Origin: Blasia pusilla
Taxonomy: Eukaryota
Direction of reading: 5' to 3'
Assembly: GCA_050084515.1 (NCBI GenBank)
Contig: CM114271.1
Span: 19,344,001-19,408,000, forward strand
DNA: 64,000 bases
Position numbers and translations under genes: made by a program. Position 1 is the first letter of the stretch. Every line of letters begins with the position of its first letter. The notes beneath the pieces were generated by a model. That model was not told the DNA's origin, did no database searches, and saw only the letters and a list, made by a program, of their open reading frames with translations. Positions 1 to 26,593 of the stretch are shown here, piece by piece.

Positions 1-301
1 GGAGATATGGCGACTTTAGCAGCATTTTGTTGTGCCATCACTTGGCCTAGTGCTTTGATTGAGGGACATGTCCATACATAGGATACTACCGTTTGTGACA
101 TTTCTATGGAGAGGAGTGTCATGGTAGCTTTGGGGCTCGATTAAGGAGCTTCGACGCTTAGCCTATGAGCATGTGCAGACCGTGTGGAGCGAGACGTTTG
201 CACTAGAGTGTGATAGGTCAGAGGAACCCCAGGTAGGCAGGAGTGTTGCTATGACCCCTTTGGAAACCACCCGGATTTTGTGATGCATCCCAGAGGAGGA
301 T

Positions 302-1252
302 ATTCGGGTGTTGGATCTCTTTGGAGGGATGAGCAGTGGGTTAGCTGTTGTTTTGTACGCTGGAGTGCACATACAATAGTACGTGTATGTGGAGATTGAT
401 GATGTTACAAGACGCGCTTCACTTCACCGTGTGGCGCAGTTATGCCTCCGTTTTCCCAACTTCTTGTCTGCGTCCGCCATTCAGGGTTACTAGAGTTCCT
501 TACCGAGGGACATTTCATTGTTGGGGGCGCATGACTTGGAGCGGGTAGGGATTGTAGGCTTGGTCATTTCTGGTTGGCCGTATCAGGGCCAATCGAGTGT
601 TGGACGAGGTAGCAAGTTAGCTAACACTCGGTTGAGGTTGTTCTGGGAGATGATGCGGATCTTGCAAAATTTACAAGAGCATTAGCCTCATTCTCCAGCA
701 TACATTTTGGAGAATGTGCCGATTTTGGGCGATTCGAGGTCCTACGTGGTGACGAGTGCACATTAGGTGCGCGTATGGATCGGCCCCACAGTGTTGTTAG
801 ATGCGGAAAGTGTAGGTTCTAGAGCACACCGCCCGTGTCTTTGGTGGACCAACTTGGTACCATATGAGGTGTTGCGGAGGGCTTACGCAAGAGTGGAGCG
901 TCCCTTTGATTTGTTGGTGGATTCTGTATTGGATTTGGGCGGTCAATCACAGGAAATTAGGCTAGATGATCGACCACCGTTGATTGTGGTCAATAGGATT
1001 GGTAGGCCACGGGCAACCTTTCCCACATTGGTGAGTTTTCCCGCTTCCTATGCATTCAAGGAGGCCGGAACTGGCTTGGTTTGGGATGACCAAGTACAGA
1101 GGTTGGTGGATCTCAACGCAGATGAGCGAGAGCGAGCGATGGGATTCCCCACAGGAGTGACGGCAGTACCGTCACTATCAGAGGCATCACGACGTCATGT
1201 CTTGGGTTAGGCAATGGACTTAAACTGCTTGACATGGATTTTTAGCTTAGGA
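302..1252 (+). pseudogene. Retrotransposon-encoded DNMT3-like C5 cytosine methyltransferase domain (copy 1; catalytic Cys mutated to Tyr, in-frame stops)
   Basis: All in one frame: IRVLDLFGG (motif I, 302), YVEID (II), DI..L (III), LVISGWPYQG (IV, TAT at 581-583), ILENV (VI, 710-718), GSRAHRPCLWWTN (VIII), ERERAMGFPTGVT (IX), SRRHVLG*AMDLNCL (X). Resembles the DNMT3 catalytic domain (RARYFWGN; EMERVFGFP..T; ARQRLLGRSW). Confidence 0.9.
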
Positions 1253-1532
1253 GTAGCTGAGCAGCGTCGTTTGAGGATGCGACAGATCACAACTCTTACG
1301 CTAGTGAGCCCCATGCCTACGGAGATGGTTGAGGCAGTGGCTGGCGGCCAAACTCGAGGAGATCGACACACCAAAGGTGATCGGAAGAGACACCCTTGGA
1401 CTTCTTGGGATGTTTTGCAGGTACGCCAAGAGATGATAGCCACAACATTGAGCGTGGTTCCGGGTACTGCATGTGGAGATGAGAGTTCTATTGTCCGAGG
1501 CGGGGTTTCATCATAGCAACCATCGACATCCG

Positions 1533-2167
1533 TATCGTGCAAATACACATCGCTACACAACATACATCGTTGTCATCTAACACACACACAAACACACACG
1601 ATCCCATGCTAACTCATGGCATCCAAACAGCGAGACAAGAAGTACTAAAATATCTCCAATAAAGTAAGATCCAATCTCTCTCCACACTATCTCACACCAT
1701 AGCTCTCAAAGGTGTGCACTCTCTCTCATGTCAAACCAAACCCACTCTCCTAATGAGCGGCTTGGGTGACACTCACAAGGCAAGGGACCATAGCTCCGCT
1801 GCCTTATGCCAAGAGGTTCAACAAAGAGAGAATGAGCTCTCAAGCTCTCTCTTGGAGGTATATCCCCTTCCCTCTCCCAAGCCCTCTCAACCGTAACCTA
1901 TTCTCCCAAGTCACCTCCTTGGCTCTTGACCTGATGTAGGAGGTCAAGGGCCACTTACCAAAAATATAAAGTTGATCATACACTCAAAATGATACTTACC
2001 TAAAATAGTTCCTCAATATGGCTCCAAATGAGCCGAAACGAAGGAGAAACCTGCTCTCTTAGGTTTCTCAGGGCCTCAGTAGGTCATCCTCTGACTACTG
2101 AGCATTTTCTCCACTTCTAACAGAGGCTTTAACTAGATCTCACGGATCTATCCTAAAAGACGTGACA
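1533..2167 (-). mobile_element. Solo terminal unit (A+B, 635 bp) of the DNMT-Gypsy family, nested in reverse orientation in copy 1
   Basis: On the minus strand it reads TGTCAC...GCACGATA and is homologous to 5974-6620. Flanked by the 4-bp duplication TCCG (1529-1532 and 2168-2171). Removing it restores the linker QPSTSASESPTVVTMETWEP, collinear with copy 2. Confidence 0.88.
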
Positions 2168-2250
2168 TCCGCGTCGGAGAGTCCTACCGTAGTCACGATG
2201 GAGACTTGGGAGCCAAATATGGGTATTAAGTTGACAGAAGGAGAGCGGAG

Positions 2251-2692
2251 TGTTGGATTCTCTACATCCACTTCTTTGAGCACCATTAATCTGATCGGCC
2301 CCCTTGTATGAGGAGAAGCCTAGATTGATGGTTCCGACTTAAACGTCGGAGGAGTCATAGTAATATGACATAGGTGGTCTTAAGAGTAGCGTTACTAGGA
2401 TTATCTAACCCTTTATTGCATCAGGGTGCGGTGCACCCTAATGCAATCTAGAGTTAGGATTAGGGGAAAAAATTCTATTAATAGAAACAAAGAAAAATAG
2501 GTTAAAAACCCTAATATCCTGAGAAGTGAAATAGTTGGGAGCCGCAGCGGTAGCGGATTCTCGTATGTCGAGTTATCTTCATGTTTAGGTTCCATCGAAG
2601 CTCTTCTGTAAGCGTACGGACGAACTAGGCCACTTTGTATCTCTAAGTTTCGTAAAGATTTCAGTGGTTTCGTCACTTTCTATTTTCTAACA
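2251..2692 (+). mobile_element. Solo LTR, family L2 (442 bp; orientation arbitrary)
   Basis: TGTTGG...CTAACA ends with 5-bp TSD CGGAG/CGGCG. Removal restores the pre-RT frame (EGERR*IHQFL). Related copies at 24078-24293 and 24429-24777. Confidence 0.88.
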
Positions 2693-2699
2693 CGGCGTT

Positions 2700-4090
2700 A
2701 GATACACCAGTTCCTTAGGAATTATAGGATTTATTTTGCATTTAGTATGTATGATTTGAATACGCGTAAGGGTCCAGGGATCCGCATTGAGTTGTCGAGT
2801 GACACGCCGATCTTCCGACGACGCTACAGGTACAATGACATGGAGAGGGATCTAATTTAGGGTAGGAGCTAGGACTTGGTTGGAGCAAGACTAGTGGAGA
2901 TGTCGCATGGAGAGGATGCATCAACCACTGTCATGCCCGCCAAGAAGGATGTGCATGGCAACTTGAAGGACAGGCGGATGTGTGGAGATCACCAACCTAT
3001 CAATCGACACAGAAAGTTCAATAGGTATGCCATGCCCACTCCTGAGCAGATCTTTTGATGTTATTGGACATGCAAAGGTCTTCAGTTTGTAAGATCTTCG
3101 AGCCGGATACCATCAACTGCCTCTTAGATTGGAGGACAGGTAGAAGACGGCAATTTGGGGCATCGATCCTCATGGGAAGGATTGCTTGTACTAGTGGCGG
3201 TTCTTACCATTTGGGTTAAAGAACGCCCCGGCTGAGTTTTAGAGGGTCGTGGATAGGATCTTGGATTGGGTCTAGATTTTACTATGTGTTATATTGATGA
3301 CATCGTAGTCTTTAGCGCCACGGTTGAGGAGCATGATCCACAGCTAGAGGAGGTGTCTCGACGATTGTAGTTACATGGGCTGAAGCTACATCCAAGCAAG
3401 TGCAAGTTCTTCTACGACCAGATTGAGTACCTAGGTCATATGATATATCCACGCCTTGATGTGCAACACACAAAGGTAGAGGCTATTTCATGCATTTCAC
3501 ACCCTACAAATGTGAGTCACGTTTGTGCATTCATGGGATTGGAGAACTTCTATTGACGATACGTCAAGGGTTTTAGCTCGATTGCAAAGCGGCTGACCTT
3601 GCTGACCAAGGTGGATCAGAAGTGGCACTCGGGGGATGAGCAAGAGAGAGCATTTCAGATGCTCAAGGACAGATCAACGTCCGCGCCCATATTGAGGAGA
3701 CCAATCAGGGAGCGTCCTTTCCAATTGCATACCCATTGCAGCATATTGGGGCTTGGAGCCGTGCTCACCCAGCATGACGATGATGGTTGAGAGTTCGTGG
3801 TGGCTTACGGTAGTCGCTCAAACAACGCTGCAGAGGAAAAGTATAGCTCGTATAAGGATGAGTGCTTGGCTGCAGTGTGGGATGTCGCACATTTCAAATG
3901 TTATCTATTTGAAAATCCCTTTACCATCATTATTGATCATCAGCCACTTAAGTGGTTGATGGAGTCCAACAAGCTTATAGGAAAGCTTGCGAAGTGGGCT
4001 CTTTTGTTGTAGGAATATGACTTCCAGGTGGTGCATAGACCTGGGATGCTCAACCAGGATGCAAATGGTTTGAGTCGTAACCCATGCCCG
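2700..4090 (+). pseudogene. Reverse transcriptase + RNase H of Gypsy copy 1
   Basis: PAKKD..RRMCGD, RYAMPTPE, DLRAGYHQL, PFGLKNAPAEF, CYIDD (3287-3301), FQLHT, YSSYKDECLAAVW, DHQPLKWL. Multiple stops and frameshifts. Confidence 0.93.
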
Positions 4091-4439
4091 AGTCAATGAG
4101 ATGCGACTCGAGCTCGTTGGCATGGTGAGAGTGATGAGGAGTTGGTGCTAGGATGGCATGCGTCAGCCTATTTGGGCTTGTTGGCTATGGAGAGCTAGAT
4201 TGTTGAGACTTCTATGGCAAGGTCTCATGGAGAGTCCTAAGATCCAGAGTCCAGTGAGGAGACGACACGTGGCCGAGACATTTACGACGATGGAGTGGTC
4301 TTGGAGTACCTACGTACTTGCAGCGTTGCGAGCATAGTGGTTGCTAGAGAGCGGGATCAGATCCTACAACGAGCAAGACGGTTTTGATGGGAGGGGACAC
4401 ATGTGTTATGAGTGTGGGAGGATGGTAGAGTGTGTGTAG

Positions 4440-5670
4440 TGCCTCATTCTTTGCAAAGAGCACGTTTGGTGCATTATGTCCACGAGGAGCTACGTCATTT
4501 TGGAATGAAGCGAACGTACAGCTTGTTAGGTTCAATATTGATGGCGAGGCATGCAGATTGACGTTCAGCAGTTTGTTGCTAGATGCATGGTGTGTGATCG
4601 AGTCCAAGCATCTTTCAATGCTCCGACTCCACACTTGCATCCACTTCCAATCATGGGTTTAGGTTATAGATGGAGTTTGGATTTTGCAGGACCTTTGCCT
4701 TTGATGGAGCATCATAGTCGTTATGTGTTGGTGATGGTCAAGCACTTCTTAAAGTGGATACAGTTGGTTGCCTTGCCAGACGAAGCAAGTGAGGGAGTAG
4801 CATCTGCCTTCCTAGATCGAGTGCTAAGTCATTACGGCGCACCAGCTAAGGTGTTGATAGACTAGGGTACAAAGTTCCACAGGGAGTTTCAAGCCTTGTG
4901 TGATCAGTTCGATCGACCATCGCACTACTTCACGAGATCATCCTAAGGTGGATGGACTAGCGGAGCGGGTTGTGTAGACGGTGAAGTGAGGACTACACAA
5001 GTAGATTGGGACCTTCAGTTGCCGTGGTTGGCCATGGGATACACATTCAACAGGTAGGCATCCGTAGCCTCTTTCTCATCGTTCTTCTTGATTTATGGCC
5101 GAGAGCCAAATTTACTCTGCGGCCATTCATTGAGATGTTGGTGAGATGTTGAACCTTGATGACCCTGATGTATGGATGCGAGCATGTTCTCAGAGGGTTG
5201 AGTTGTTTTGGAGAGTGATGCCCAACGCGTTTGAGAACTTGGCGATTGCGCAACACCGCGATACGTTGAGGTATGCAACTATTCGGGGAGGTGGTTATCG
5301 ACCTACTATCCGGAGGTTTCATCAAGGAGACTTTATCTACTTGCAGCAGACGGCACTCACAACGTTGGATGTGACTGCAGGGCGCACCATCTTGAGAGAG
5401 CGTGAGGTTTTGCCATCCGGTGTTCTCTTATTGGAGGGACGCGATGGTATGGTTTGGAAGGGCCATATGCGTAACCATGCACCATGTCATCTTTTGAACA
5501 TGGACGGTACAATTGATCAATGTTTGCGGTGTATGTCGTGTGGTTTTACCCGTGGTGCAATCACTATGCTAGTCTATGATGGGTGTTCGAGAGGATGGCA
5601 TATGACATGTTTGACGCCACCTCTCACTAAGATTCCTCAAAGCTGATGGATGTATCCTAGATGTACATAG
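4440..5670 (+). pseudogene. DDE integrase + C-terminal PHD finger of Gypsy copy 1
   Basis: VHEELRHFG...CMVC zinc-binding motif, WSLDFAGPL, VLID*G, DGLAERVV. Then CMSC..MLVYDGCSRGWHMTCLTPPLTKIPQS*WMYPRC (5530-5664). Confidence 0.9.
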
Positions 5671-5852
5671 CGTAGATAGTTCTAGATTGTGACTTATATC
5701 TATGACATGGATGACAAGAAGGCAACTAACGATGGGTCCACATGAGCACCCTGCCTTCTTGCTCTTAGCGTCTAAGAGATGCATGTCATGGTAGGTAGGG
5801 ATAGATGGCAATCTGGAGTTAGAGGGACCTAACCACCAACTAGGGAGGCGAT

Positions 5853-7474: not shown

Positions 7475-8630
7475 ATACCCTAAACCCTAGCCCACTCTTC
7501 AAGAGAGAATCCAAGCTAAATACATGCAAGCCGCACTATATCACGGATACTAACAAGGGTCTGCAATCCTGAGTTCATCCAAGGTATACCCTCCTGGGCA
7601 CCTCAATGGGTGACGTGTAAACACAACTCACCTCCCTCCTAGCAGGTCACTACCAACCTGTAGTACACACAAAATAGCTCCCTAACAACTACACATGTGG
7701 TCCCCTCATGAGACCAACTACCAATTAACCCACGACCCTATAGATCCAAGTGGAGCCATACATGGCTGGGAAGGTCATCCTCTCCAAGGTTGTCATTCCT
7801 CATAAAGGGAAGGGTGACCTACACTCGTAGGTCGTCTCCTAAGAGCAGGTCACATATGACCTCTCAAAATAGGGGATCAGAAGACCCCTCTAAGGCCTTG
7901 ATACTATCTCGCCCTATGCCTCATCTACCATGATAGATGTCGTGCAAATACACATCGCTTTCAACATACATCGGCTGTCATGCACACGAATGTATGAGAT
8001 CCATCTAACTATGAATCCTAACATCTCTACACATGAACAAATGGACAACCCCAATCGCCCTCCTAGCTGATGGTTAGATCCCTCTAACTCTAGATAGCCT
8101 CCTAAACAAGTCTAAATGCCATGCACCTGTTTGGTGCTAAGATCAAGAGGTCGGGTGTTATGTCGCACCATCGTTAGTCACCTTCCTACAATCCATAACA
8201 TCAAGATTCATCTTGTATCTACCTATCACACCTATGTACATCTAGGATAAAGCGAACATCCCTGAGCAACCAAATCAACAGGCGGCGTAAAAAATGACAC
8301 ATGCCTTCCTCGATCACACCGATCACAAACTAGGATCGTGGCTACGCCTCTGGCAGACCCACACAACATGCATCTCAAGCCTACGGGAACAGCTGCCAAG
8401 CTCACATCAATCCCCCCATCTACCTTTAGAAGATGAAATGGCACACAGTTACATACATGATCTTTCCAAACGGTACCATCACGACCCTCTAAAACAAGGA
8501 CTCCTGAAGAAAAAATCTCTCGCACTCGCAAAATAGTTAGTCACGCCGTCCCGTCCAATGTCGTCAACGCTGTCTGTTGTAGGAAGACATAATTGCCAAG
8601 ATGGAACCTCCAAATCCCAGGATGGTTAAC
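7475..8630 (-). mobile_element. DNMT-Gypsy family copy 3, 3' fragment (integrase C-terminus, PHD, B1, A-like module)
   Basis: Minus strand: WRFHLGNYVFLQQTALTTLD...EGRDGTVWKDHV...CMLCGSARGVATILVCDRCDRGRH...YPRCT* (stop at 8232). Then the conserved GTTAGAGGGATCTAAC/purine motif, B ending GCACGACA at 7938, spacer TC, and A-like sequence from 7935. Confidence 0.88.
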
Positions 8631-11159: not shown

Positions 11160-12450
11160 TATGGTCGTGTGACTATTGCCACAGATATGGTCACATTAGG
11201 GATAGATGTTTTGACCTTCGTCAAGAGGCACGTCCAGAGGTAGGCCGAGGGCCTAGGGGCAATCGTCCTGGAGGAAGTCACGGAGTCCTTCCTGGACATG
11301 GTGGTAGAGGACCACCACCAGCAAGAGGAGCTGGAGCAAGAGCACTAGAGCCGGCACTTCTCTCACGCATTGATCAGTTGGAGCAGAAGATTGCTGCCAT
11401 GACGATGATGCAGCTCAGGGAAGGCACTGAGCCGCGAGCAGCTAGTGTGGCTCCAGTTTCTACCTCTTACCCTAACCTAGGTGAGGATCTCACTAGTATG
11501 GGATTTATGTGTAGTGCAGCTCAGGTTGAGACTGCTGTAGTGGTGACTCGGGGTGCTACGAGAGGCATCGAGCCATCAAGAGGTGGAGTTGAGATTGAAC
11601 CATCAGAGGGGACCAATGGGCGGCAGGCCACAGTTCCACAGTCATTCACATTATCGAAGGCACTACACACACAATCGATGGTGCCTTGACGACCAGTGGT
11701 GCCTTTATGTCATGCAAGTATGTCGACGTTACAAGGAGTTGGAGTGACAACTCCTATGTTGGCTCAAGTGGAGTCAGTGTCGACCATAGTGTTGGAGGTG
11801 GCCATCAGAGTGAGCCAGACTCCACTATTTTCCGCCATAGAGTTGGCGACATTGGGAGTTGGACCAACTGAGGTGTTCCGGCTGGCCGCCACGTTGTGTG
11901 AGCGTGGAGAGGTGACCGCTTCTTGTTTTGAGGTAGTTGAGGAGGTGGTGGACTTGCCCTCAGAGCCGGTGCTCAAGACGTCCCCCACAGAGTGATGGCA
12001 TGCGGCGGCGGAAAAGTTGGTAGATATGCCAGCTCGACCGGCCATAGAGCAAGCAATGGTGACACCTCGAGTAGTGTTACTGGATAACCAAGCTAGAGTA
12101 TTTTGCTTGGTTAATCCGATGGGGAAAATATACCACCCGCAGCGCGTCCTACTTGATTCGGGAGCCGAGCCCTTGATGTTAGGGAAGGCGGCGTGTTTAG
12201 CGTTGGGGTTACGGAAGACCAACATTAAGCCTTTTCAGACCTCGATTGGGGGCGTGTCATCCACGCAGTATATGACTCGATAGGAGATAGTTTTTAGAGT
12301 CCATCCAGAGCATGCGACGGATAGTGCTATGGTGCGCACACGTGTGATTACAACACCAGCTGACTCATACGATGGGTTGGTGGTTGGTGGGGAGTACAGT
12401 ATTATATCCCCTAGGATTCATCCTTGACTTTTGGGAGGAGACCGTTGTTT
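11160..12450 (+). pseudogene. Gag C-terminus with CCHC zinc knuckle and aspartic protease of copy 2
   Basis: CDYCHRYGHIRDRC (11168-11209) followed by a G/R/P-rich segment. RVLLDSGAEPLMLG (Asp at 12155) is in the same frame. Confidence 0.85.
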
Positions 12451-12870
12451 ATCGGCTAGGGTGGCGGTCAGGGTGATAGCCAGATGAGTCAGTTACCCAT
12501 GCAGTTTGCGAGACGAGGTGGTCGATCACAAGACGAGTCTGTGACCACATTGGCAGCTTTCATAGGTAGTGTTAGCTAGCCACGAGAGTTGTTGGAGGGG
12601 AATGCACATGCGGAGGACGTCCTAGTTGCGGATAGTCCCACGGAGAGACAGGCCATGGCGGGTGTCTCTTCCCATGTTGGTGAGACCTCTTCACCATTGT
12701 GGGGTACAACTTGAGAGCTATAGAGGAGTACCGAAAACCTTGTGAGGCAAGCGTGGAGTCATGCCTTTATCCCGAGGCAGCGAGATTTAGGTGGCAATCG
12801 GGCCCCTGGAATGGAGACGTTGATCCCACTGGATACTACACCCGTTGTGTGGTAGTGTATAGAGAAGGAT

Positions 12871-14790
12871 GTTAGGGTGTTAGATCTCTTCGGAGGGATT
12901 AGCATAGGATTGGTTGCGGTATTGTAGGCGGGCATACGGGAGCATCAGTACCTTAATGTGGAGAAAGATGAGACTGCACAGCGAGTATCATTACGTCATG
13001 TAGCAAGATTGGTCCAAAGGTATCCAGAGTTGTTGCCGGTATCTGCAATACAGGGATATCATCATACACTACCCGCCGACATCTCTTTGGTGGGGGCGCA
13101 GGATCTGGATAGAGTTGGCACCAGTGTCACGACCCTCATGACCAAACGAGTGCCAAAGCAGAACATCGGAATATTAGTGGGCTCACACTAAGATGGTTTG
13201 CGCGTTGGAGTGGTCTCGAAGAAGAGACAAGAGACGGGATGCAAGCAAGGCTTTGCGTTTCAGATGTTGTGGTCGCGACTAAGAAACCTGGACCAAACGC
13301 GAAACAAGACTTGAAAGGAGTTGAGTTTAGAAAGTGGGTTGCCAAAGGAAGGAATCCGGATTTGGGACGCCACTAGCTTTGAGAGTTTTCAACTGTATTT
13401 ATGGCCATAACTTTTAGCGCCAAGATGCGTTTGGATTGGACAAGGATGTGTTGAAGGCTTATGAAAAGTTGGTTCAAACGCACTAAAGATCTCTGCTAAC
13501 GCATAAGCAGTGGCTGAGAAACAACCCGGAAACGACTGTAAGTAGAGTCGGGTTGAGGGCCACAATGAAGGGCCTGACCCTCCTTTTCCAAAGATGGGGG
13601 GTTATTGGAGAACCCCAGAAGTACTAGTAAGGGGAAGGTCTCCAAGAGTGCTTGGAACTCGAACCCCACTTTGGGCGCCATGAGGCGGCTCAAGGGAATG
13701 GAACGAATCGAGAGTTTGGGGTTGGGTTGGAAAACCTAAACCAAGTCTATGGAGGCGATTTTAGACATCCCTCTTGGATTTCACCCCGCAACTCAATTAC
13801 TTGGGTCTCGATTTGGAACTCACATGAGGTCCGTTGAACAGTTGGGATCGCTAGGCACGCAAGTGCCATTTTAGGTTCCTGGACTAATCAAGAAGTTTGT
13901 TCCAAGTCTTGAAGGTTGAGTTTGATGAGACGCCGAGGTGAGAACTCGGTGGGTTGGAACGCTGGTTGGCCTAGACCCGACTAACAAGAGTGCGTGTTTG
14001 GGTGCAGATCGGCGATGAGATCGTGTCCTACTGAACGTACGCTTCCGCAACAATAAAGATTGACGTTCAAGGAGAGTAGGGGCGCGATAATTCATTTGGT
14101 GATTGCTGGATGGCCATGTCAGGGTCATTCATCAGTTGGCCAAGGGTTTGGATTGCAGGACCCGAGGTCAGGGATGTTTTGGGAGATGTTGCGAGTAGTA
14201 CGACACTTGCAAGAGAGTCAGACATATTTTGCAGCATAGATTGTGGAAAACGTGCCATTTTTTGGAGACACTCGTGCACGTGTGATGACGAGTGTGCATC
14301 AGATGAAATCCTGGTTGGGACCTGCTGTGTTGTTAGATATAGCGAGAGTTGGATCACGCGCCCATCGTCCACGACTATGATGGACAAACTTGATACCATC
14401 AGAGGTACTGAGTCGAGCATACAATGGAGTCTAGAGAGCACCACATCTCACAGTGGATGCTATTTTGGGCTAAGGGCGTCAATCTCAGGTGGTGACGCGG
14501 GATGATAGACCACCGTTGGCGATGGCCAATAGGGTGGGGGAGTTGAGGGCAGCCTTACCTACATTGGTGAGCTTCCCAGCATCACATGCCTTTCGTCAAA
14601 GAGGGCCAGACATGATTTGGGATGAGGTGACCCAAGCATTGGAGGAGCCTACAGCACATGAGCGCGAGCGCGTCACGGGGTTTGCTACGGGTACTACTGC
14701 GATGCCACGTATGACTGAGGCATCCCGGAGACAGATGTTGGGGTAGGCGATGGACCTCAACTGTCTCACGTGGATAGTCCGCCTAGGTAT
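12871..14790 (+). pseudogene. DNMT3-like C5 cytosine methyltransferase domain (copy 2), split by a solo LTR at 13125-14089; catalytic PC intact
   Basis: VRVLDLFGG (12871), NVEKD, DISL, then the insertion. After it: LVIAGWPCQG (TGT 14117-14119), DPRSGMFWE, IVENVP, GSRAHRPRL*WTN, ERERVTGFATGTT, SRRQMLG*AMDLNCL. Confidence 0.93.
13125..14089 (+). mobile_element. Solo LTR, family L3 (~965 bp; orientation arbitrary)
   Basis: TGTCACGACCC...GGGGCGCGATA imperfect terminal inverted repeat. Absent from copy 1 at the equivalent site. A diverged relative lies at 60758-61539. No clean TSD. Confidence 0.8.
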
Positions 14791-15046
14791 GGATGAGTAG
14801 AGACGGATGCGAGTGTCAACCATGCCGTCATGTTCACGAGTTGGACCATTGCCTATACGGTCTGTACAGGCATTGGCTAGGGGCAGAACGAGGAGAGATA
14901 GGAACCCATGGACTTCCTGGGACGTCGTTCGAGCGGAGAGTACGAAGGCGGCTAGAGCAGCACATGTTTATTTTTTGGATGTGGAGCATGGTGTAGGAGG
15001 TCAGAGTGGAATGGTTGTTGCGGAGGTGGCTAGGGTTGCTACATAG

Positions 15047-16764
15047 CAACCAAAGCCAGAGGTTGCGTCCTCTCCAAGTGAGGTCACGATGGAGACTTGG
15101 GAGCCTATGATAGGTCTCAAGTTGATAGGAGGAGAGTGACGGCGAGTTCATAGGTTTCTAAGAGGGCTTGTCAGTTGTTTTGCCTTCAATATGAGAGACT
15201 TGGGTACGCTGAAGGATCTCCGGATACGGATTGAGTTGGCTATTGATACGCCGATCTTTCGTCGAACCTACAAGTATTGTGATAGGGAGTGAGCCTTGAT
15301 TTACAGCAGGAGTCAGAACTTGTTAGAGGCAGGACTTGTGGAGTTATCACATGGGGAGTATGCATCTGACACAGTCATCCCAGCGAAGAAGGATATGTAT
15401 GGTAATTGGATGGATAGGCGGATGTGTTGAGATTACCGTCTTATCAACCGACACACGAGGTCAGATCGATACGCCATGCCTACTCTTGAGGAGATCTTTG
15501 ATGCAATAGGGAATGCAAAGATCTTCAGTACTTTAGATCTCCGTACTGGCTGTCATCAGCTTCCTATCAGGTTGGAGGACAAGGAGAAGATAACATTCTC
15601 GGGGATAGATCGGTTCGGGAGAGATTGCTTGTATTAGTGGCGGTTTTTACCATTTGGGTTGAAGAACGCTCCTGCGGAGTTTCAGAGAGTGATGGATAGA
15701 ATTCTGGTTGGCTTGGAGTTTATACGATGTTACATAGATGATATTCTTACCTTCAATTCCACGGTTGAGGAGCATGAGTGACATCTGGAAGAGGTGTTTC
15801 GGCCATTGCAGTTACATGGACTGAAGTTGCATCCATGAAAGTGCAGATTCTTTCAAGAGCACATTGAGTACTTGGGACACATCATATACCCAAGTGGGTT
15901 AGGCGTTCAGTAGAAGAAGATGGAGGCTATTGCGCAGATTCCACGCCCTACAGATGTGAGTCGAGTCTGAGCGTTTCTTGGACAAGTGAACTTCTATCGA
16001 CGGTATATCAAGGGTTTTAGTGCGATCGCAAAGTCTTTGACCTTGTTGACGAGACTTGATCGTGTTTGGTTGTGGGGAGATGATCAGGAGTGAGAAATTT
16101 AGGAGCTCAAGGATAGGTTGACGTCCTCACCCATTTTACATAGACCGGTTAGGGATCGCCCATTCCAATTACATACGGATTAGAGCATGTTGGGTCTAGG
16201 AGCAGTGCTTTCTCAGAGGGATGACGAGGAGAGGGAGTTCGTTGTGGCTTATGTGAGCTGATCGAACAACATTGTAGAGGCAAAGTACAGCTCTTACGAG
16301 GGAGAGTGCTTGGCTGCAGTGTGGGCCGTGGCACATTTCAAGTGTTATTTATTCGGCAACCGTTTCACACTTATCACTGATCATCAACTGTTGAGGTGGT
16401 TGATGGAGTCCGACAAGCTTACCGGAAAGCTTGCCAGGTGGGCTCTATTACTACAGTAGTATGAGTTTGAGGTGGTTCATAGGCTAGGTCGGTTGAACCA
16501 GGATACGGATGGGTTGAGTCGTAACCCATGTTCGAGTTAGAGAAACGACACATGAGCTCGATGGCACCGAGAGAGTGATGAGGAGATGGTGCCCGATTAG
16601 CATGCATCATCTGCCTATCTTTGTTGGTTGACTATGGTAGGTCAGTCGCAGGTAATGACTCCAGTGGTGGGGTTGGATGATGAGTCTTTGGATCCGGAGG
16701 TCAGTGAGGAGGCGATAGGTGGTCGTGATATCCATGACGACGTGGAGGTTGTGGAGTTCTTACG
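15047..16764 (+). pseudogene. Reverse transcriptase + RNase H of copy 2
   Basis: Same frame as the MTase C-terminal half: PIFRRTYKY, PAKKD, RYAMPTLEEIFD, STLDLRTGCHQL, PFGLKNAPAEFQR, CYIDD (YIDD 15731-15742), FQLHTD, YSSYEGECLAAVWAV, TDHQLL. Confidence 0.94.
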
Positions 16765-17094
16765 TATTGAAGATTGAGTTACAGTCAAGCTCATGAGATA
16801 CCTAAACTACTATATTTGGTACTCACACGAAGTAGGAAAACTTAATCTTGGTTAGTCAGTTAAGCACGATTATCTTAACTACGGTTAGTTAATCACAGTA
16901 AGTCTAACACGAGACTATGGTTAAGGGTAGGGTTAGGGTTGCTTGTACATATCCTATGTAATTGAGAAGAGGACTAACCTCCACTTATTCTTTCATCGCA
17001 AATTTTGTTCTCCATGGTGGTGTGTGTGTGTATGTGTGTGTGTGTGTGTGTGAGCCTTTTTCTACCAATTCTGCTTGTTTAGCAGTTTTCCACA
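16765..17094 (+). repeat. Copia 5' LTR (TA...CA)
   Basis: Direct repeat of 21937-22248 with a longer (TG)n tract. Confidence 0.95.
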
Positions 17095-17106
17095 TGGTAT
17101 CACAGC
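17095..17106 (+). other. Primer-binding site, initiator tRNA-Met type
   Basis: TGGTATCACAGC, one mismatch from the canonical TGGTATCAGAGC, immediately after the 5' LTR. Confidence 0.9.
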
Positions 17107-17193
17107 GGGAAGAGAACATCACTTGAAATTCTTGGTATTTTAAGGGAGAAGAGAGGCAAGAGAAGGCACACTTTCAGTTTGGGAGAAGGAAAA

Positions 17194-17747
17194 TTTTATT
17201 GACAACACAGTGGGTGCAGATTTCAAATGGAGCTTTCACGGTGATAAAACTTTGGAGGCATTTTTTAGGGCCTTTCCGGTCGATTTAGCTGTCTGGGCCC
17301 ACTTCGGCTAGAATGATGCCAAAGACTGGTTCTAGCCGTCTTGTAGAGCTTGTCAAGAGCTTTCCAACGCACTCAAAATCGCTTGATTTTGACACTCTAA
17401 GCTTTTGCAGTACCAATTTCAGCATAGAAAAGTGCAATTAGTGAAGAAAAGTTGTGCAGTTTGCTCTCTATTTTATTCAAAGCTCAGTGGGTGCAGATTT
17501 CAAGAGGAGCTTGGACGGTGATAAAACGTTGGAGGCATTTTTTAGGGCTTTCCTGATCAATTCTGCCGTCTGGGTCCGCTTCGGCTAGAATGATGCCAAA
17601 GGCAGATTCTAGCCGTCTTGTAGAGCTTGTCAAGAGCTTTCCAACGCACCCAAAATCGCTTGATTCTGACACTTTGAGCTCCTGGATCAACAATTTCAGT
17701 GTAGGAAAGTGCAATTGGTGAAGAAAAGTTGTGCAGTTTGCTCTCTA
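17194..17747 (+). repeat. 277-bp tandem duplication in the Copia 5' leader
   Basis: Units 17194-17470 and 17471-17747. The sister Copia at 10810-11085 has only one unit. Confidence 0.9.
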
Positions 17748-17888
17748 TAGGCCAATTTCGACTAGTTCTTTCATACAGTTGATCAATTTGGGAAAATTTC
17801 AGGTCGACTTCTGTGTAGGAGTGGTCTATGCTTCAAGTGGAGCAGTAGAAAGCCTGAAATTACATTTTTGTGAGTGAAATCGTTTATG

Positions 17889-20800
17889 ATGGATTATTCC
17901 TCACCAACAATCATAGGCGAGAAGCTAGACAAGCATAATTACAATGTCTCGAAGTTTCACATGAAAAAATTTCTCATGGGTCAAGAACTATGAGAGCTTG
18001 TCATAGGTGATGAGGCCAAGCCAAAAGGTGACTCAATAGACTTGAATGTTCGCGCTTCGAACAAACGCGCAAGGCAAGTAATCCACTACATTTCAATAAC
18101 GATCGGTTCGCCAATGATAGGTCACATCCAAGATGTTGATATTCCGAAGGAGGCCTGGGATGCATTGGAAAAGCTATTCTAGATATCTACAAAGGCCAAA
18201 AAGCTTCAATTGAAACAGCAATTGAACGAAGTGAGGAAAGGATCGTAGAGCATCAATGATTATATTTTAAGTATCTGACATATTGTTGATTAGTTGAATA
18301 GCATTGGAGTGACAGTAGAAGATGATGATCTGATTTTATTCACTCTTCAAGGCCTTCCAAAGGATAACAAGTCCTTTGAGACCTCTATCTCTGTGAGAGA
18401 GAAATATCCAACCTTTCAAGAGTTAGTTTCTCTGGTGGATATCAAGCATATGGAGGAAGAGGCACTCAATATAACGTCACTCAATCAACTACGAACCAGT
18501 ACCACACACAATCACAAGGTGGTGATGGTGGAAACCGTTGGGGTCGAGGTCATCAATAGAGGGTCCTTGAATCTTGCAATTATTGTGGGATAAAGGGTCA
18601 CTATGCAAAGTTTTGCTTCAAGAAGAAGGGAAATATGAGAACATGAGCCTTACATCAACAAAATTATGTGGAGCAACAACACCAAGAGCAGTACCAAGAA
18701 CAACAACATTCACAAACGGAGCATCTCTTGGCCATAACTCATCATAGGGGAGCAATGGTTAAGAAAGACTCGACAACAGATTGGTACATTGACTCTAGTG
18801 CATCAAATTACATGACCTCACAAGCTAAATGGTTCAATAGTTTGGAGCCGGTAAAAGATTCTGTAATTGTGCTCACAGGAGATGACACTCAACATCATAT
18901 CACGCATACCAATAAAGTTCCAATAGCATCACATGCTCTTTATGCTCTTGCAAATATTCTCTATGTTCCTACCATTGCAAGAAATCTAATCTTTATAGGA
19001 AAGATAGTAGAACAGGGTTATCAAGTGAAGTTTAACGCAGATGGTTGTTTCATTGAAACAATGGATGACCAGACTACAATAGCCAAAGCAACTAGATCTC
19101 GCAGAATCTTCAAATTAGATGTTTCCATGCCAGAGATTCAAACAGCAATGTATGGTCAAACTGGCCAACAAGTCATAGATCTAAATGTGTGGCATAAAAG
19201 AATTGGACATATGAATCTTCAAAGATTATAAAGTCTTTCATCATCTAATATAGTAATAGGACTCCCTAAATTAGGGAGTTCTGCTACGTTAGAGGTATGT
19301 CTAGCTTGCCAATTTGGAAAACAAGCTAGATTTCCTTTTCCAAAGCAAGGTAGAAGAACATCCAAGATATTGGAGTTGATCCACAATGATGTGTGGACAG
19401 CATCACAACATAGCCTTGGTGGTTTGCCAGTACTTTATTTCATTTATTGATGACTTCTCTAGATATATATGGGTATACTTTCTGAAAGCCAAGTCACAAG
19501 CTTTCAGAAAGTTCAAACATTCAAAGTTCTAGTAGAGAAGCAGACTAGATAATACATTCTGAAATTGCGTTGTGATGGAGGAGGAGAGTATCTTTCAACA
19601 GAGTTTGATGACTATTTACGTCAGAATGGCATCCAACGTCAAGTGACTTACCGTTATACTCCAAAAAAAAATGGAGTGGTTGAAAGGAAGAATCGTCATA
19701 TTGTTGAAGCGGCACGAGCTATGCTGAATGAGAAGAACATGCCTAAGGTGCATTGAGCAAAGGCTGTAGCATGTGTAGTCTTCTTAATCAACCGAACTCC
19801 AACATCAAGAGTTCATGATAAAACTCTATTTGAAGTCTTCATAGGAATTAAACCTGATTTTTCCTTCTTGAAAGTATTTGGCTGTATTTGTTATGCTCAT
19901 GTTCCTTTTGAGAGACGTCAAAAATTAGACCCCAAGTCTGAAAGATGTATCTTCATTGGCTATGTTGATGGAACTAAGGGGTATAAGTGCTACATTCCAT
20001 CCTCTAGGCAGCTTATTATTAGTCGGGATGTTATCTTTGATGAGCTAAAGTCATGGTATGCTCCATCCAAGCCTATTCCACCTCTAAACTTGTCTGTTCA
20101 GAGAGAGAATATTCCTATAAACCAATAGACATTGTCTTCAACTTCCCCAAGTACTAGTGCAGGATTAGGAGAGGTCCTAGATTCATCCATTAAATCTGTG
20201 AGTCCATGGACGGAAAGAGTACATATTCAGTCTGTTGACACTAGTCAGAGCTCGAGGTAGATGTCAGAGGCATCTACCTCTAAACAACAACTTCGTAGAT
20301 CAAGTAGAGTTACACATCCAGTTCATAGATTCATAAATGAAGGTTTTCTTGTGACACATCATGCATATATGATGACTACCCTTCAACAGCAAGAGCCAAG
20401 TTATTTTGAAGAAGCTGCGAGTAAAGCCGAATGGATTGAAGCTATGGAGGAAGAGCTTGCTGCATTAAGACATCAACAAACATGGGAGCTGGTTGATATA
20501 CCTTCCGGTAAGGAAGCTATTGTTTGCAAATGGGTTTACAAAATCAAGCGCAATCAAGATGGTACAATTAACAGATACAAAGCAAGATTGATGGCTAAGG
20601 GCTATGCACAACAATATAGTATCGATTATGAGAAAACATTTAGCCTTGTTGTAAAGATGGCGACTACGAGAATAGTGGTTGCAATTGCAGCAAGTAAGAA
20701 GTGGAGATTATATCACATGGATATCAAGAATACCTTCTTGAATGGAGATCTATACGAAGAGGTATATATGACTCAACCACCTAGATACGAGCATCCCAAG

Positions 20801-21949
20801 TTTCCATTTCGCGTATGCAGGTTGAAGAAAGCTCTTTACAGGCTCAAACAAGCTTCAAAATCTTGGTATGGCAAGATTACATACGTTCTACAAGAGTTGG
20901 GTTTTAGGGTATGTGATTTTGACTCCTTGCTATATGTCTTGAGAGGACAAGATTATACAGTTCTCATTGTGTTGTATGTTGACGATCTCTTGATTACTGG
21001 GAGTACTGAAAAAATGGTACAACAAGTCAAGCTTAAGTTACAAGCAGAATTTGATATGAAGAACTTGGGAGAACTCAAGTATTTCCTTGGTATTGAGTTT
21101 ATCAAGGTTGGAGAGAGCATGTGGCTACTACAACAACAACATGCTCTTCATATGCTTTCAAAATATGGTATGAAGGCTTGTAAGCCAATATCTACACCGT
21201 TGGACCAGAGCGTGAAGCTAAGAGTGGATGAAGGAGAGTTGCTTGCAGACTCTAATATGTACACGCGCATGGTTGGAAGTTTGATCTATCTAAGTATAAC
21301 CAGACGAGATTTAAGCTATGTTGTTGGCCTAGTGAGCCAGTTTATACAAGCACCTCGAAAACCTCACCTTGATGTTGTGAGGAGGATTATTCGGTATGTG
21401 AAATTCTCTATTCAATTCGGGCTTCAATTTGAACCTTCTCCGAGTTTTCAATTATAGGGATTCATAGATGCTGATTGGGTAGGAAGCGTGTCTGATCCGC
21501 ACTCCACATCTGGTTATTCATTTACTTTGAGAAGCGTAGCTATAAGTTGGGCTTCAAAGAAGCAAGCTATAGTTGTTTTATCTTCAACAGAGGTTGAGTA
21601 CATAGCAGCAACCAATGCAGTATGTGAGGCGGTGTGGCTTCATCAATTACTTGTTGAGATTGGTGTTAGTAACTTAAGACCTAGTGTAATATTTACGAAC
21701 AATATTAGTAGCATCAAGCTTGCTAGTAACCCTGTGTTGCATGCTCGTACAAAGCATGTTGAGGTGCACTATCATTTTATCATAGAGAAAGTGCTTGCAG
21801 GAGAAATTGATCTTGTGTATATAGGCACAGATCATCAAATTGCTGACATCTTTACAAACGCATTGTCTAGAGATAAGATTGAGATGTTTAGAAAAGATTT
21901 AGACGTTGGAGATATCGATATGAGCTTGAGGGGGAGTATTGAAGCTTGA
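17889..21949 (+). pseudogene. Copia gag-pol polyprotein (disrupted)
   Basis: WYIDSSASNYM (PR), WHKRIGHMN, RCDGGGEY and NGVVERKNR (IN), CKWVYKIK/YKARLMAKG/LYVDDLL (RT), WASKKQ/HARTKHVEVHYHF/QIADIFT (RNase H). Stops and frameshifts present. Confidence 0.95.
21928..21936 (+). other. Copia polypurine tract
   Basis: GAGGGGGAG directly abutting the 3' LTR. Confidence 0.88.
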
Positions 21950-22248
21950 GTTACAGTCAAGCTCATAAGACACCTACACTGCTACATTTGGTACTCACAC
22001 GAAGTAGGGAAGCTTAATCTTGGTTAGTCAGTTAAGCATGATTATCTTAACTATGGTTAGTTAATCACAATTAGTCTAACTCGAGACTATGGTTAAGGGT
22101 AGGGTTAGGGTTGCTTGTACATACCCTATATAATTGAGAAGAGGACCAGCCTCCACTCATTCTCTTATTGCAAATTTTGTTCTCCATGGTGATGTATGTG
22201 TGTGAGAGTTGTTTTCCACCAGTTATGCTTGTTTAGCAGTTTTCCCCA
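21937..22248 (+). repeat. Copia 3' LTR (TA...CA)
   Basis: Direct repeat of 16765-17094. Confidence 0.95.
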
Positions 22249-22253
22249 TTGGG

Positions 22254-23656
22254 CACTAACGTCATAGTAAGCACAGTGAGTGCTAGAGAGCGGGATCGGA
22301 TCCTACAGAGAGCCAGGAGGTTCAAGTGGGAGGGGACTCATATTTTGTGGGTATGAGGAGATGGTAGGATACGAGTGGTACCTCATCCTTCCCAGCGAGC
22401 ACGTGTAGTGCGACATGCCCATGGAGAGTTGGGCATTTTGGAGTAAAGCGTACTTACAGCTTACTCCAAGTTCACTATTGGTGGCGCGGCATGCATACTT
22501 GGGTAGAGCAGTTTATGGCCATATGTATGGTATGTGACAGAGTGCAAGCATTCTTCAATGCTCCCACTCCACAGTTACATCCTTTGTCGATTATGGGTTT
22601 AGATTATCGGTGGAGTTTAGACTTTGCGGGACCTTTGCCATTGACGTGGCGTCATCACAGGTATGTGTTGGTCATGGTGGAGCATTTCTCCAAGTGGATA
22701 GAGTTGGTGGCACTATCGGAAAAGGCAAGCGAGGGAACAGCTAATGTGTTTCTAGATCGTGTGCTTAATCACTTTGGTGCACCGGCAGAGGTGTTGACTG
22801 ACCAAGGTACCGAGTTCAGGGGAGAGTTTCACGCCTTGTGTGATGAGGCGCTAATAGATCATCGCACCACGTCCAAAGATTATCCTAAGGCGGATGGGTT
22901 GGCGGAGAGAGTAGTACACACGGTGAAGAGAGGATTGTGCAAGTATGGCTTGTAGCGAGGACAGTTGAGGGAGTGGGACCTACAATTTCCATGGTTGGCT
23001 ATGGGTTATCGCTTTAGTCAGAAGATATCCTTGGTGTCATTTTCACCGTACTTTTTGCTCTTTGGGAGAGAGCCAGATTTACCTACAGCTATTCGACGTG
23101 ACATGGAAGAGGTGTTAGATCTTGATGATCCAGATGTGTGGATATAAGCGTGTTCACAAAGGGTGGAGATTTTTCAGAGAGTTATGCCTATGGCCTTTGA
23201 GAACTTAGCTATTGCTCAACATAGAGATACATTGATAAACGCGACCATCCGTGGAGGAGGTTATCGTCAAGGATTAGGAGGTTTCATCATGGAGATTACG
23301 TGTATTTACAGCAGGCGGCACCCACGACACTAGATGTCACTGAAGGGGCACGATCCTACGTATGCGCGAGGTATTACCGACCGGAGTCCTCATGTTGGAA
23401 GGACGAGATTGTATGGTTTGGAAGGATCATGTGCACAATTGTGCGCCATGTCATCTTCCGAACGTGGACGAGACAATGGATCTAAGCTTGGCAATGGTAC
23501 TTGCAGGTTTGAGGTGTATGTTGTGCGGATCTACGAGGGATGCGGCCACCATGTTGGTATGTGATTGTTGTTCTCGAGGGTGGAATATGTCATGTCTGAC
23601 CCCCCCTTCTTGATGTAGTTCCCACGGGACGATGGATATGTCCGAGATGTGTATAG
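22254..23656 (+). pseudogene. DDE integrase + C-terminal PHD finger of copy 2
   Basis: HGELGHFG (frameshifted)...CMVC, WSLDFAGPL, VLTDQGTEF, ADGLAERVV. PHD reads CMLCGSTRDAATMLVCDCCSRGWNMSCLTPP(1-nt shift)LDVVPTGRWICPRCV* (23515-23656). Confidence 0.93.
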
Positions 23657-24077: not shown

Positions 24078-24293
24078 TTTCTATTAATAGAAATAAAGAT
24101 AAATAGGTGAAACATCCTAGTTTCTTGAGTAGTGAAATAGTCAGGAGCCGCAGCGGCAGCGCATTCTCGTATGTCGAGTTATCTCCATGTTCAGGTTCCA
24201 TCGAAGCTCTTTTGTGAGCACACGGACGGACTAGGTTGTATCTCTAAGATTTGTAAAGATTTTAGTGATTTCGTCACTTTCTGTTTTCTCACA
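24078..24293 (+). mobile_element. L2 LTR, 3' half
   Basis: Homologous to 2473-2692; ends TTTTCTCACA. Confidence 0.82.
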
Positions 24294-24777: not shown

Positions 24778-26393
24778 TTGTTTAGGAAAACTTTCCAAAA
24801 TGAAGAAAAAATAAACATGAAAATTTTTCTAGATACCAAATGATGGTAGGTCCTTGACATATCCATCATAAAATTTCTCTGATTGGTTAGTAGAGATGGG
24901 AAAGGTTCTCCTACAATTAGATTTGAATTTAGGATATTAAGTGATTAAACTTCCACATTACATGATGACTTAAAATGAGAAGATTTTTGACCTTATTGAT
25001 ATCACCTATGGTAATGATAAGAAAATGTTTCTCCACATACATTTCTTGAATCTTGAGGGATACAACTGTATTGAAATGAAGAAACATACCTACTAGGTAT
25101 TCATTACCTTGATCAATATGTTGCTACAATTGAGAAATCATAGCCATCGTTGCCTCAAGTGTGAGTTCTCTATCTACTTAGGACGTATTTTAGCCCTACC
25201 TCCACCATCTCATCAACACCCCACATCCCTAGTTCATACCTCCTATGATGTCTTTGTGTCCCTTGCAACTTCCAAGTGAAAAATCTCCATCTCTACGGAA
25301 CTTAAGATAGATCTATATAGAAGCATTTCTTGCATGTCTAACCATGTCTCTAGTATTATCTCATTGAGACGACAATGGCCTCATCTAAATTGTCTCATCT
25401 ATAGGATGGGTTGCAACATACGTATGTGCTCCACCCTACTTTCAAAAATTTGGTAGTAGATGTTATCTACCCCACATCCAACAAGTAAAACTTGGTGCTT
25501 GTTGGTGAGCGTTAGATAATACCAATCATGGTTCCTACTTACGGTATTCTCCCATAGTCCTGAATATCCAAGGTTTCATCTATAGTATTATGGGAGAATG
25601 CCCTTATAGGGATGCCATCCCTCTTGGTGATATCTGTCTATTTTGGCCTGTAGTTAATTGACACGTGTTGCTCTTTCCTTGCAAGTCGAAGCATGTAAGC
25701 TACTTTGAAATGCCCGAGTTTTTTTCTTCTTGGGCTAATCTTTCACCCATGTACAACACGCGCACCGGCTAGTATAGAAAAATTCTATGTCTGCCAACAT
25801 GTCAATGTTAGTAGACTTACATGTGTCTTGTAGGACTTGTCAATGTGGGCCCTATCTCCTCCTTCTTTCTCATCCCCCCACTTGCCTTCATGATCCGCAT
25901 TGTCTCGTTTCTTCCTCCTCCCATGCATCTCCACTCCCTCCCCCCTTATTGCCCCACCCACCCTTGGCTTGTCTTCCACCATGAACTATAAAATAGGGGC
26001 CCCATCCTTGGAAATCCATGTCTGTGGACATGTCTAAACTTGTCTGTCCATGTCCTTCATAGGGACGAAATTATCCCTTTTTGTGCAACCATGTAAATAT
26101 CACAACTTTATCTTGAGGTATGAATTTGTAGCATTTGTGGAGACATTATCACACTTATTATCTCCCTCGAGGATGGACCTCTTGCCATCAAAAACCTCTC
26201 CTCAAGTGCATTCAGCTCAATGCACAAATCTAACAAACATAGAGACCAGAAAACAGGTAAATCAACATGTAATAGAATCACATCACGTAATCTCTTCCCA
26301 AACTTGTGGTCTAGTATCCCATACCAAAATTGAACCGTTTGTGCCACTAAGTCATCAACATGATCAACGGTGCAATATGCCCATATGCATCTA

Positions 26394-26593
<200 letters not shown>

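Follow-up and report, generated by a model that had tools for sequence, protein, structure and literature searches.

Decayed copies of a Ty3/Gypsy retrotransposon family with a putative DNMT3-type methyltransferase in Pol, in a genomic stretch of Blasia pusilla

The stretch of DNA analysed here (the window) comprises 64,000 nucleotides of Blasia pusilla (GenBank assembly GCA_050084515.1, contig CM114271.1, positions 19,344,001 to 19,408,000). It very probably holds two decayed copies and two fragments of a bryophyte family of Ty3/Gypsy retrotransposons. The Gag-Pol of this family has the order CCHC zinc knuckle, protease (PR), DNMT3-type C5-cytosine methyltransferase (MTase), reverse transcriptase (RT), RNase H (RH), integrase (IN) and PHD-like finger, with the MTase as an integral part of the element. 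A preliminary description of the window had reported the MTase of one copy. The domain is not unique in the window, as a second, uninterrupted copy of it is found at 272-1273. The three MTase segments are as follows.

272..1273, + strand: complete MTase domain of copy 1 in one uninterrupted frame, with 6 stops; catalytic Cys replaced (PYQ)
12877..13122, + strand: N-terminal half of the copy 2 MTase, from motif I to just before motif IV; frame 1, one TAG
14090..14797, + strand: C-terminal part of the copy 2 MTase, with motifs IV, VI, VIII, IX and X; frame 2, 5 stops, PF00145

The methyltransferase domain and the element around it

The conserved motifs of C5-MTases are named I to X. In both copies motifs I, IV (PCQ), VI (ENV), VIII (RxR), IX and X follow one another in canonical order, with PYQ in the place of PCQ in copy 1. 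In a three-frame translation of 12700-15200, the VLDLFGG of copy 2 is located at 12877-12897 in frame 1. Frame 2 contains GWPCQG (14108-14125), ENV (within 14243-14254), RAHRPRL (14357-14377), ERERVTGF (14660-14683), RRQMLG (14726-14743) and AMDLNCLTW (14747-14773). Each motif lies where the preliminary description had placed it.

The two pieces of the copy 2 MTase were analysed separately, and the uninterrupted copy 1 served as the full-domain query. The C-terminal piece (14057-14797, with X at its 5 stops) matches the Pfam family PF00145 with an E-value of 9e-8; its 32.3 bits exceed the curated cut-off of 22, and the match is far beyond chance. The copy 1 domain also passes this cut-off with 23.7 bits, and intact relatives reach up to 54 bits; the profile search that had been suggested as a check is therefore positive for both copies. 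The N-terminal piece alone is without any Pfam match, and it aligns colinearly with intact relatives. When the copy 2 halves were compared with the window by tblastn, copy 1 was matched at 131-1261 with E-values of 3.7e-85 and 9.6e-32 and identities of 56% and 45%.

The other parts of copy 2, including the two insertions that interrupt it, are listed below.

11168..11209, + strand: CCHC zinc knuckle of Gag (CX2CX4HX4C), aligning from residue 334 of Marchantia Mp_4g09160
12020..12418, + strand: aspartic protease region, LLDSGAEP at 12149-12172; tblastn match to residues 757-892 of the metagenome protein P0357 (Asp_protease_2)
13123..14089, no strand assigned: 967-bp insertion, most likely the solo long terminal repeat (LTR) of another element; private to copy 2, skipped in sibling reads
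15173..16763, + strand: RT and RH in the frame of the C-terminal MTase part, 15 stops; RVT_1 1.2e-25, RT_RNaseH 4e-32, and tblastn
16764..22249, + strand: Ty1/Copia insertion between RH and IN; LTRs 16764-17095 and 21936-22249 (86% alike), RVT_2 8e-70
22250..23650, + strand: IN with C-terminal PHD-like finger (CMLCGS at 23515-23532); Integrase_H2C2 2.1e-9, rve 6.1e-12

The matches to RVT_1, RT_RNaseH, Integrase_H2C2 and rve occur in this order, with the protease placed by homology. This is the Pol order PR-RT-RH-IN, with a Gypsy-type RH and an H2C2 integrase, and it bears out the assignment to Ty3/Gypsy made in the preliminary description. The CCHC knuckle and the D-S-G of the protease are located upstream of the MTase, and RVT_1 and RT_RNaseH follow it in the frame used from motif IV on, also as described before. 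Neither Gag nor protease was matched by Pfam at E-values up to 0.01 when 11090-12873 was searched in three frames; both were placed by their homology to relatives. The protein Mp_4g09160 of Marchantia polymorpha (1278 amino acid residues) is colinear with copy 2 from the knuckle to the end of the MTase. By tblastn its residues 334-720 correspond to 11168-12388, residues 717-746 to 12384-12473, residues 747-963 to 12475-13119 and residues 965-1261 to 14090-14992.

A raw DNA run and three RNA-seq runs of the same organism were mapped to the window at 90% likeness or more. There are 24,620 DNA reads at this level and only 362 at 99% likeness or more, which indicates many sibling copies. The RNA reads (369, 359 and 419 in the three runs) are nearly all 90-95% alike and are therefore derived from sibling copies, which are thus transcribed in this organism. 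The depth of the RNA is greater over RT-RNase H than over the MTase. The first mate is mostly on the minus strand, and this means that the sibling transcripts are sense RNA, assuming the usual stranded (dUTP-type) library.

The joint between the two halves of the copy 2 MTase is given by the same reads. Excision of the 967 nt brings both halves into one frame, and the joint 13122 to 14090 is crossed by 615 DNA reads with 222 start places and by 7 RNA reads, all from sibling copies. The splice points are exact, because the sibling reads skip exactly 967 nt there, and the tblastn alignment to Mp_4g09160 breaks at the same joint, at residues 963/965. The splice proposed in the preliminary description is confirmed in this way.

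It is important to consider whether the MTase belongs to the element. In a handful of metagenomes, 160 stretches encode relatives with 42-77% identity, and 80 related loci (L001-L080) were compared. They are nearly all riddled with stops like the copies in the window, and their contigs look like bryophyte nuclear DNA. RT is found downstream of the MTase in 60 of the 80 loci. Where both ends are seen (37 loci), the spacing from MTase to RT is 297 nt, in frame, in 28; it differs by 1-4 nt in 8, and one locus carries an insertion. At four loci, elements of about 9.1 kb are flanked by direct repeats of about 0.33 kb with TG..CA ends. The in-frame position of the MTase between protease and RT, noted before for copy 2, is accordingly fixed across copies and species, and the constant spacing is not that of a sporadic passenger.

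The region is a dense transposon nest with insertions, an inverted duplicate and truncations, and it could be imagined that a fragment of a host DNMT3 gene was put beside a gypsy element by nested insertions, as a passenger or an assembly chimera. Such an origin has a negligible probability. The two copies in the window have the same order at only 56% protein identity, and the same order and frame recur in proteins of Marchantia, Riccia, Sphagnum and Closterium as well as in the metagenome loci. In addition, single open frames span all the domains, and the trees of RT and MTase are congruent. A disrupted host gene, a passenger and a chimera are refuted by the repeated order, the open frames and the congruent trees. 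As judged from these comparisons, the MTase appears to be an integral and vertically co-inherited part of the element.

Class of the methyltransferase and its relatives

A family profile of 36 aligned members (alignment A1) was searched against all PDB sequences and gave 57 matches. The best are DNMT3A (E-value 4.1e-26), DNMT3C (2.3e-23) and DNMT3B (1.9e-23), followed by tobacco DRM (4.8e-15), DRM2 (1.9e-11), M.HhaI (8e-9) and DNMT2 (about 2e-6); no DNMT1 or CMT chains are among the 57. An intact member, P0160, was modelled with AlphaFold2, with a predicted local distance difference test score (pLDDT) of 90.2 and a predicted template modelling score (pTM) of 0.89. In a Foldseek search with this model all 32 rows listed, to rank 50, are DNMT3A, DNMT3B or DNMT3C, with E-values from 1.4e-18 and template modelling (TM) scores up to 0.84 by target length. 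Among solved MTases the domain is thus predicted to be closest to DNMT3, both by sequence profile and by modelled fold, which agrees with the earlier designation as DNMT3-like; the structure prediction suggested there as a check gave a match.

DRM enzymes were rejected, since the motif order runs from I to X and is not circularly permuted; DRM chains match only profile positions 92-224. CMT was rejected because Pfam finds no chromodomain in the window pieces or in relatives. The preliminary description had set aside both classes on the same grounds. The catalytic fold and motif order are like those of cellular DNMT3A, DNMT3B and DNMT3C, plant DNMT3 and DRM, with TM scores of about 0.8 in Foldseek, and motif VIII lies in a context, AHRxRxxW, similar to the one in DNMT3A. 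However, the MTase of the retroelement has PCQ where the aligned DNMT3A has PCN. It also differs from cellular DNMT3 in being without PWWP and ADD and in forming a domain of a retrotransposon polyprotein, and from DRM in being unpermuted.

An HMMER search with copy 1 returned 1318 proteins at E-values up to 1e-3, 169 of them at up to 1e-30, and many are polyproteins of 1000-3400 residues. The liverwort relatives come from Calypogeia fissa, Marchantia polymorpha (at least 20 gene models), M. paleacea and Riccia sorocarpa. Four Sphagnum species and several Closterium strains are also represented, as are the chlorophytes Scenedesmus, Haematococcus, Chromochloris and Cymbomonas. Klebsormidium proteins are not among the named matches of the relative searches. 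The closest long non-bryophyte relative of copy 1 is the metagenome protein P0006 (1775 residues), with about 1280 residues without a Pfam domain before the MTase.

Five domains were mapped onto the retrieved proteins, and a domain match was found in 304. Two orders of domains are seen. The order RT-RH-MTase-IN(-PHD) occurs in 67 of the 304 proteins, with 19 more having the MTase directly before IN, and the order MTase-RT-RH-IN(-PHD) occurs in 16, including those of Marchantia, Riccia, Sphagnum and Closterium. The copies in the window have the latter order, as do all the bryophyte and Closterium proteins that extend as far as RT. In the metagenome proteins P0357 and P0037 one open frame covers zf-CCHC, Asp_protease, DNA_methylase, RVT_1, RNase H, H2C2 and rve. 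Chlorophyte elements have RT-RH-MTase-IN-PHD, while bryophyte and Closterium elements have PR-MTase-RT-RH-IN.

The chlorophyte Gypsy elements (for example the 'pol' protein KAF8056149.1 of Scenedesmus sp. PABB004, and those of Haematococcus, Chromochloris and Cymbomonas) are long polyproteins with an MTase 31-44% identical to that of copy 1. They share with the window family the Gypsy-type RT, the RNase H, the integrase and a PHD finger after the integrase. However, their MTase is located after RNase H and not before RT, and they form separate lineages in both trees.

The MTase tree (FastTree, 186 rows) was built from the domains of 270-420 residues among the 304 proteins. A clade of 113 rows (support 95) contains all 67 proteins with the MTase after RNase H and none with the MTase before RT. 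Of the 11 MTase-before-RT proteins in the tree, 10 are on the other side, the exception being the long-branched outlier P0303. Copy 1 falls in a clade of 22 rows (support 99) with Calypogeia, Sphagnum and Marchantia. The tree of RT-RNase H (91 rows) is split by a single branch with a support of 99 into the two orders, with 82 and 9 rows, and copy 2 is nearest to Marchantia proteins with 74% identity. The two trees are congruent in separating the orders. The inheritance from streptophyte algae proposed in the preliminary description gains support from the PR-MTase-RT order found in both Closterium (Zygnematophyceae) and bryophytes.

One MTase relative, P0112 of Closterium sp. NIES-54, has a precomputed Copia-type Gag domain (PF14223). 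This suggests that capture may not be restricted to Gypsy elements. LTR Copia elements with DNMT3 are mentioned in the available text of a 2025 paper (PMC12344493).

Decay, insertions and surroundings

At least 90% of the members of alignment A1 (36 proteins, 32-76% identical to the first row) retain the Gly of motif I, the Cys and Gln of PCQ, the Glu and Asn of ENV and the two Arg of motif VIII. Among 11 Marchantia proteins checked, GWPCQ is kept in 9 and ENV in 10. The ratio of nonsynonymous to synonymous substitution rates (dN/dS) of the MTase was calculated for the 25 of the 80 loci with an ungapped full-length MTase match. The median of the 300 pairs is 0.55, and the value falls with dS from 0.86 (dS below 0.1) through 0.55 to 0.42 (dS 0.25-0.5). 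This fall is what would be expected from purifying selection on active lineages together with neutral decay after insertion.

Several points weigh against the interpretation of the window family given above. Both copies in the window are dead, with stops and frameshifts, and cannot themselves be active; the MTase frame is unbroken in only 2 of the 80 metagenome loci and broken in the other 78. The dN/dS of the MTase is 0.51-0.70 against 0.30-0.45 for RT in the same three pairs, with values of 0.23-0.47 for RT over the loci, and the constraint on the MTase is therefore weaker; locus L004 was left out of the RT values, as its dN and dS are both about 0.55 and its RT is misaligned. The PHD finger is under the Pfam cut-off in the window copies, and PWWP and ADD are absent by Pfam from 7 relatives and from the full polyproteins P0357 and P0037. 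The strand of the RNA is read on the assumption of a dUTP-type library.

The lesions differ between the copies: the catalytic Cys was lost in copy 1, and copy 2 has received the solo-LTR-like and Copia insertions. Copy 2 differs from the mapped sibling reads at 489 places. At 300 of these, G or C of the siblings corresponds to A or T, respectively, in copy 2, and at 78 the difference runs in the opposite direction. The stops of copy 2 are nearly all TAG or TGA. This is a signature of decay from C to T. CpG depletion is not marked, with observed/expected values of 0.65-0.81 compared with a window average of 0.76. A TAG occupies the same codon of motif X in both copies (1208-1210 and 14744-14746), where intact relatives have a sense codon; it could be either a mutation hotspot or a common ancestral lesion.

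The best reading of the 967-bp interruption is a solo LTR, because the insert is repeated in the genome and its siblings continue into a word like a primer-binding site (PBS). The mapped DNA reads give it a depth of 150-350x per strand class, and the siblings run past 14087 into this word with an agreement of 0.52. The word is presumably the tRNA-iMet-type PBS of plant LTR elements. Self-blastn gave no other match to the insert within the 64-kb window, and no clear target-site duplication was found; an apparent AGAGT repeat misfits the joint given by the reads. The solo LTR insertion of the preliminary description is supported by these observations.

Copy 2 is truncated at its 5' side exactly at the knuckle, where 452 sibling DNA reads extend upstream as a loose end at 11167. 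The Copia element interrupting copy 2 has an inverted, partial counterpart on the other side of copy 2 (8624-11166, minus strand, against 17114-19854, plus strand; 88-92% alike), flanked by an inverted fragment of integrase and PHD-like finger. The gypsy segment 11167-16763 therefore forms the middle of a large inverted duplication. At 17193-17746, immediately internal to the 5' LTR of the Copia element, 277 nt are duplicated in tandem (87% alike); a single such unit is present in the inverted counterpart, at 10810-11103.

The remaining parts of the family in the window are the following.

1533..2692, no strand assigned: small repeats of copy 1 between MTase and RT (1533-2167 and 2251-2692)
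2693..5646, + strand: RT, RNase H and integrase of copy 1 with PHD-like finger (5530-5640); 70-72% nucleotide identity to copy 2, tblastn
8051..8611, - strand: third fragment, integrase C-terminus with PHD-like finger; blastn to 5312-5855, PHD E-value 0.0026, under the cut-off
26183..27030, - strand: N-terminal fragment of Gag; tblastn to Mp_4g09160 residues 14-69 (E-value 8.6e-6) and 191-244 (2.6e-7)

The span of RT, RNase H and integrase in copy 1 is 2693-5448. The PHD-like fingers are located at 5530-5640, 23515-23620 and 8232-8540 (minus strand) and are partial PHD domains in Pfam. The finger of copy 1 has an E-value of 0.0011 and 19.4 bits, under the cut-off of 24, and that of copy 2 does not reach a Pfam PHD match. 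In algal relatives the same position after the integrase is occupied by a clear PHD finger with an E-value of about 1e-9. No flanking LTRs could be paired within the window, copy 1 being cut by its start and copy 2 being truncated at 11167.

By self-blastn the repeat 1533-2167 is found inverted at 5974-6620, and 2251-2692 is repeated at 24079-24777. Both are small, non-coding repeats inserted in or beside gypsy copies. The second is accompanied by a nearby inverted pair (24078-24293 and 24429-24647) that resembles a miniature inverted-repeat transposable element. Long (GA)n and (TA)n microsatellites (26300-26560) adjoin the Gag fragment. Exons of an expansin-like gene are located at 46324-47475 on the minus strand (DPBB_1, E-value 2.8e-20), about 20 kb from the transposon nest, and identify the window as plant nuclear DNA. 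Bacterial contamination was rejected, as the window bears this expansin-type DPBB gene together with Copia and Gypsy elements.

Proposed function and comparison with known systems

The PHD-like finger at the end of the integrase suggests that the element pairs a chromatin reader with a methylation writer. In intact elements the MTase would be produced within Gag-Pol and would enter the particle together with RT. It would then methylate the newly made double-stranded cDNA, or DNA at an integration site chosen with the help of the PHD finger as chromatin reader, and the new copy would arrive already bearing the methylation mark of the host. We infer this mechanism tentatively and regard it as possible rather than probable.

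The packaged enzyme is not the only activity that could be considered. The MTase could act in trans, with the host genome or competing elements as its target, either silencing rivals or blunting the cue by which methylation separates self from non-self in the host. There are many sibling copies with sense transcripts in this organism, the PHD finger could carry the polyprotein to chromatin, and host-wide effects are discussed for Symbiodinium in the available text of PMC5890265. However, an MTase embedded in Gag-Pol between protease and RT favours packaging in the particle over free action in the nucleus, and K. nitens, which has such elements, has an ordinary plant-like methylome according to the same text. 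Action in trans is unlikely.

It is also conceivable that the domain was kept as a catalytically silent module binding DNA or RNA, or that it methylates RNA like DNMT2. The conservation of the catalytic Cys and Gln, of ENV and of both motif VIII Arg in at least 90% of the members argues against such a role. So do the nearest solved relatives, the DNA enzymes DNMT3A, DNMT3B and DNMT3C, which are far ahead of DNMT2 (2.4e-6), and the CG-methylating activity that the available part of PMC5890265 describes for the Dnmt3-type domain of DIRS elements. The weaker constraint on the MTase than on RT would fit a pseudo-enzyme, and RNA methylation was suggested in that paper for a LINE-borne DNMT that failed on DNA in yeast. 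We consider this role very unlikely. Methylation of the element's own cDNA or of its target site is the preferred proposal.

A wider scenario can be formulated as well, and it seems rather improbable. One ancient Ty3/Gypsy clade with a DNMT3-type writer and a PHD reader would have been present in the green lineage since before the split of chlorophytes and streptophytes. The writer would have moved once within Pol, and in liverworts such as Marchantia the elements would still be transcribed and mobile, laying 5-methylcytosine on their own cDNA or on host chromatin. If this were true, part of the de novo methylation of bryophytes would be encoded by transposons, and exchange between a retrotransposon clade and cellular DNMT3 or DRM genes would become a live question.

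The value of the observation lies in the wider family, which is widespread in bryophytes, is transcribed, and has open frames in a model liverwort. The hosts described in 2018, Symbiodinium and Klebsormidium, are hard to manipulate, while Marchantia polymorpha is a transformable model with methylome data and harbours numerous copies in which long open frames are combined with complete catalytic motifs. Together with the transcribed siblings, these copies should make the role of transposon-encoded DNA methyltransferases testable in a land plant. Public annotations already list the sequences of the relatives, as unnamed or 'hypothetical' proteins. Transposon polyproteins account for at least 20 of the Marchantia gene models that the searches returned, some of them with PF00145, and counts of bryophyte 'DNMT genes' may therefore be too high. 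A datable marker of the history of capture is provided by the two domain orders, each of which belongs to one branch of the green lineage.

No characterised land-plant case was known to the preliminary description, and none emerged from the literature searched: no paper was found that names a liverwort, moss or other land-plant case or describes this family, with the supplements of PMC5890265 and PMC12344493 lying outside the search. Elements of this kind have so far been described from algae and dinoflagellates only. The available text of PMC12344493 mentions such elements loosely 'in streptophytes', and its dataset includes EukProt. Since EukProt holds the matched Marchantia proteins, that paper may already show them among transposon DNMT3s, and PMC5890265 may likewise include bryophyte sequences.

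As far as its available text describes them, PMC5890265 (de Mendoza et al. 2018) reports Dnmt3 domains in the Pol of two kinds of element, a Gypsy-type one in Klebsormidium nitens and DIRS elements in Symbiodinium, with Ka/Ks of the transposon Dnmt3 below 0.2 and with cDNA methylation among the ideas proposed. SymbioDIRS-Dnmt3 of Symbiodinium shares with the window family a Dnmt3-type MTase in the Pol polyprotein, and cDNA methylation was proposed there from CG methylation activity. It differs in belonging to the DIRS type, with a tyrosine recombinase, and in being hosted by a dinoflagellate, and its acquisition was independent according to the text cited. Chromoviruses and PHD-bearing retrotransposons (PMC6673714, available text) have a chromatin-reader module at the C-terminus of the integrase, as is the case here, and PHD fingers in retrotransposons are therefore already known. 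In the window family, however, the PHD-like finger is coupled with a writer of DNA methylation.

The closest counterpart is KnitGypsy-Dnmt3 (PMC5890265), likened here by its description only. It shares a non-rearranged Dnmt3-type MTase inside Pol, the Gypsy domain composition, a streptophyte host, conserved key residues and purifying selection. Its host is the alga K. nitens, while the host here is a land plant of the bryophyte clade. According to the figure legend the K. nitens element has a DIRS-like arrangement of repeats, while the relatives of the window copies have ordinary direct LTRs with TG..CA ends. The dN/dS found here on decayed copies (0.55) is higher than the Ka/Ks of KnitGypsy-Dnmt3. 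From its sequence features, the family in the window appears to be a land-plant member of the kind of element known as KnitGypsy-Dnmt3, present in the window as dead copies.

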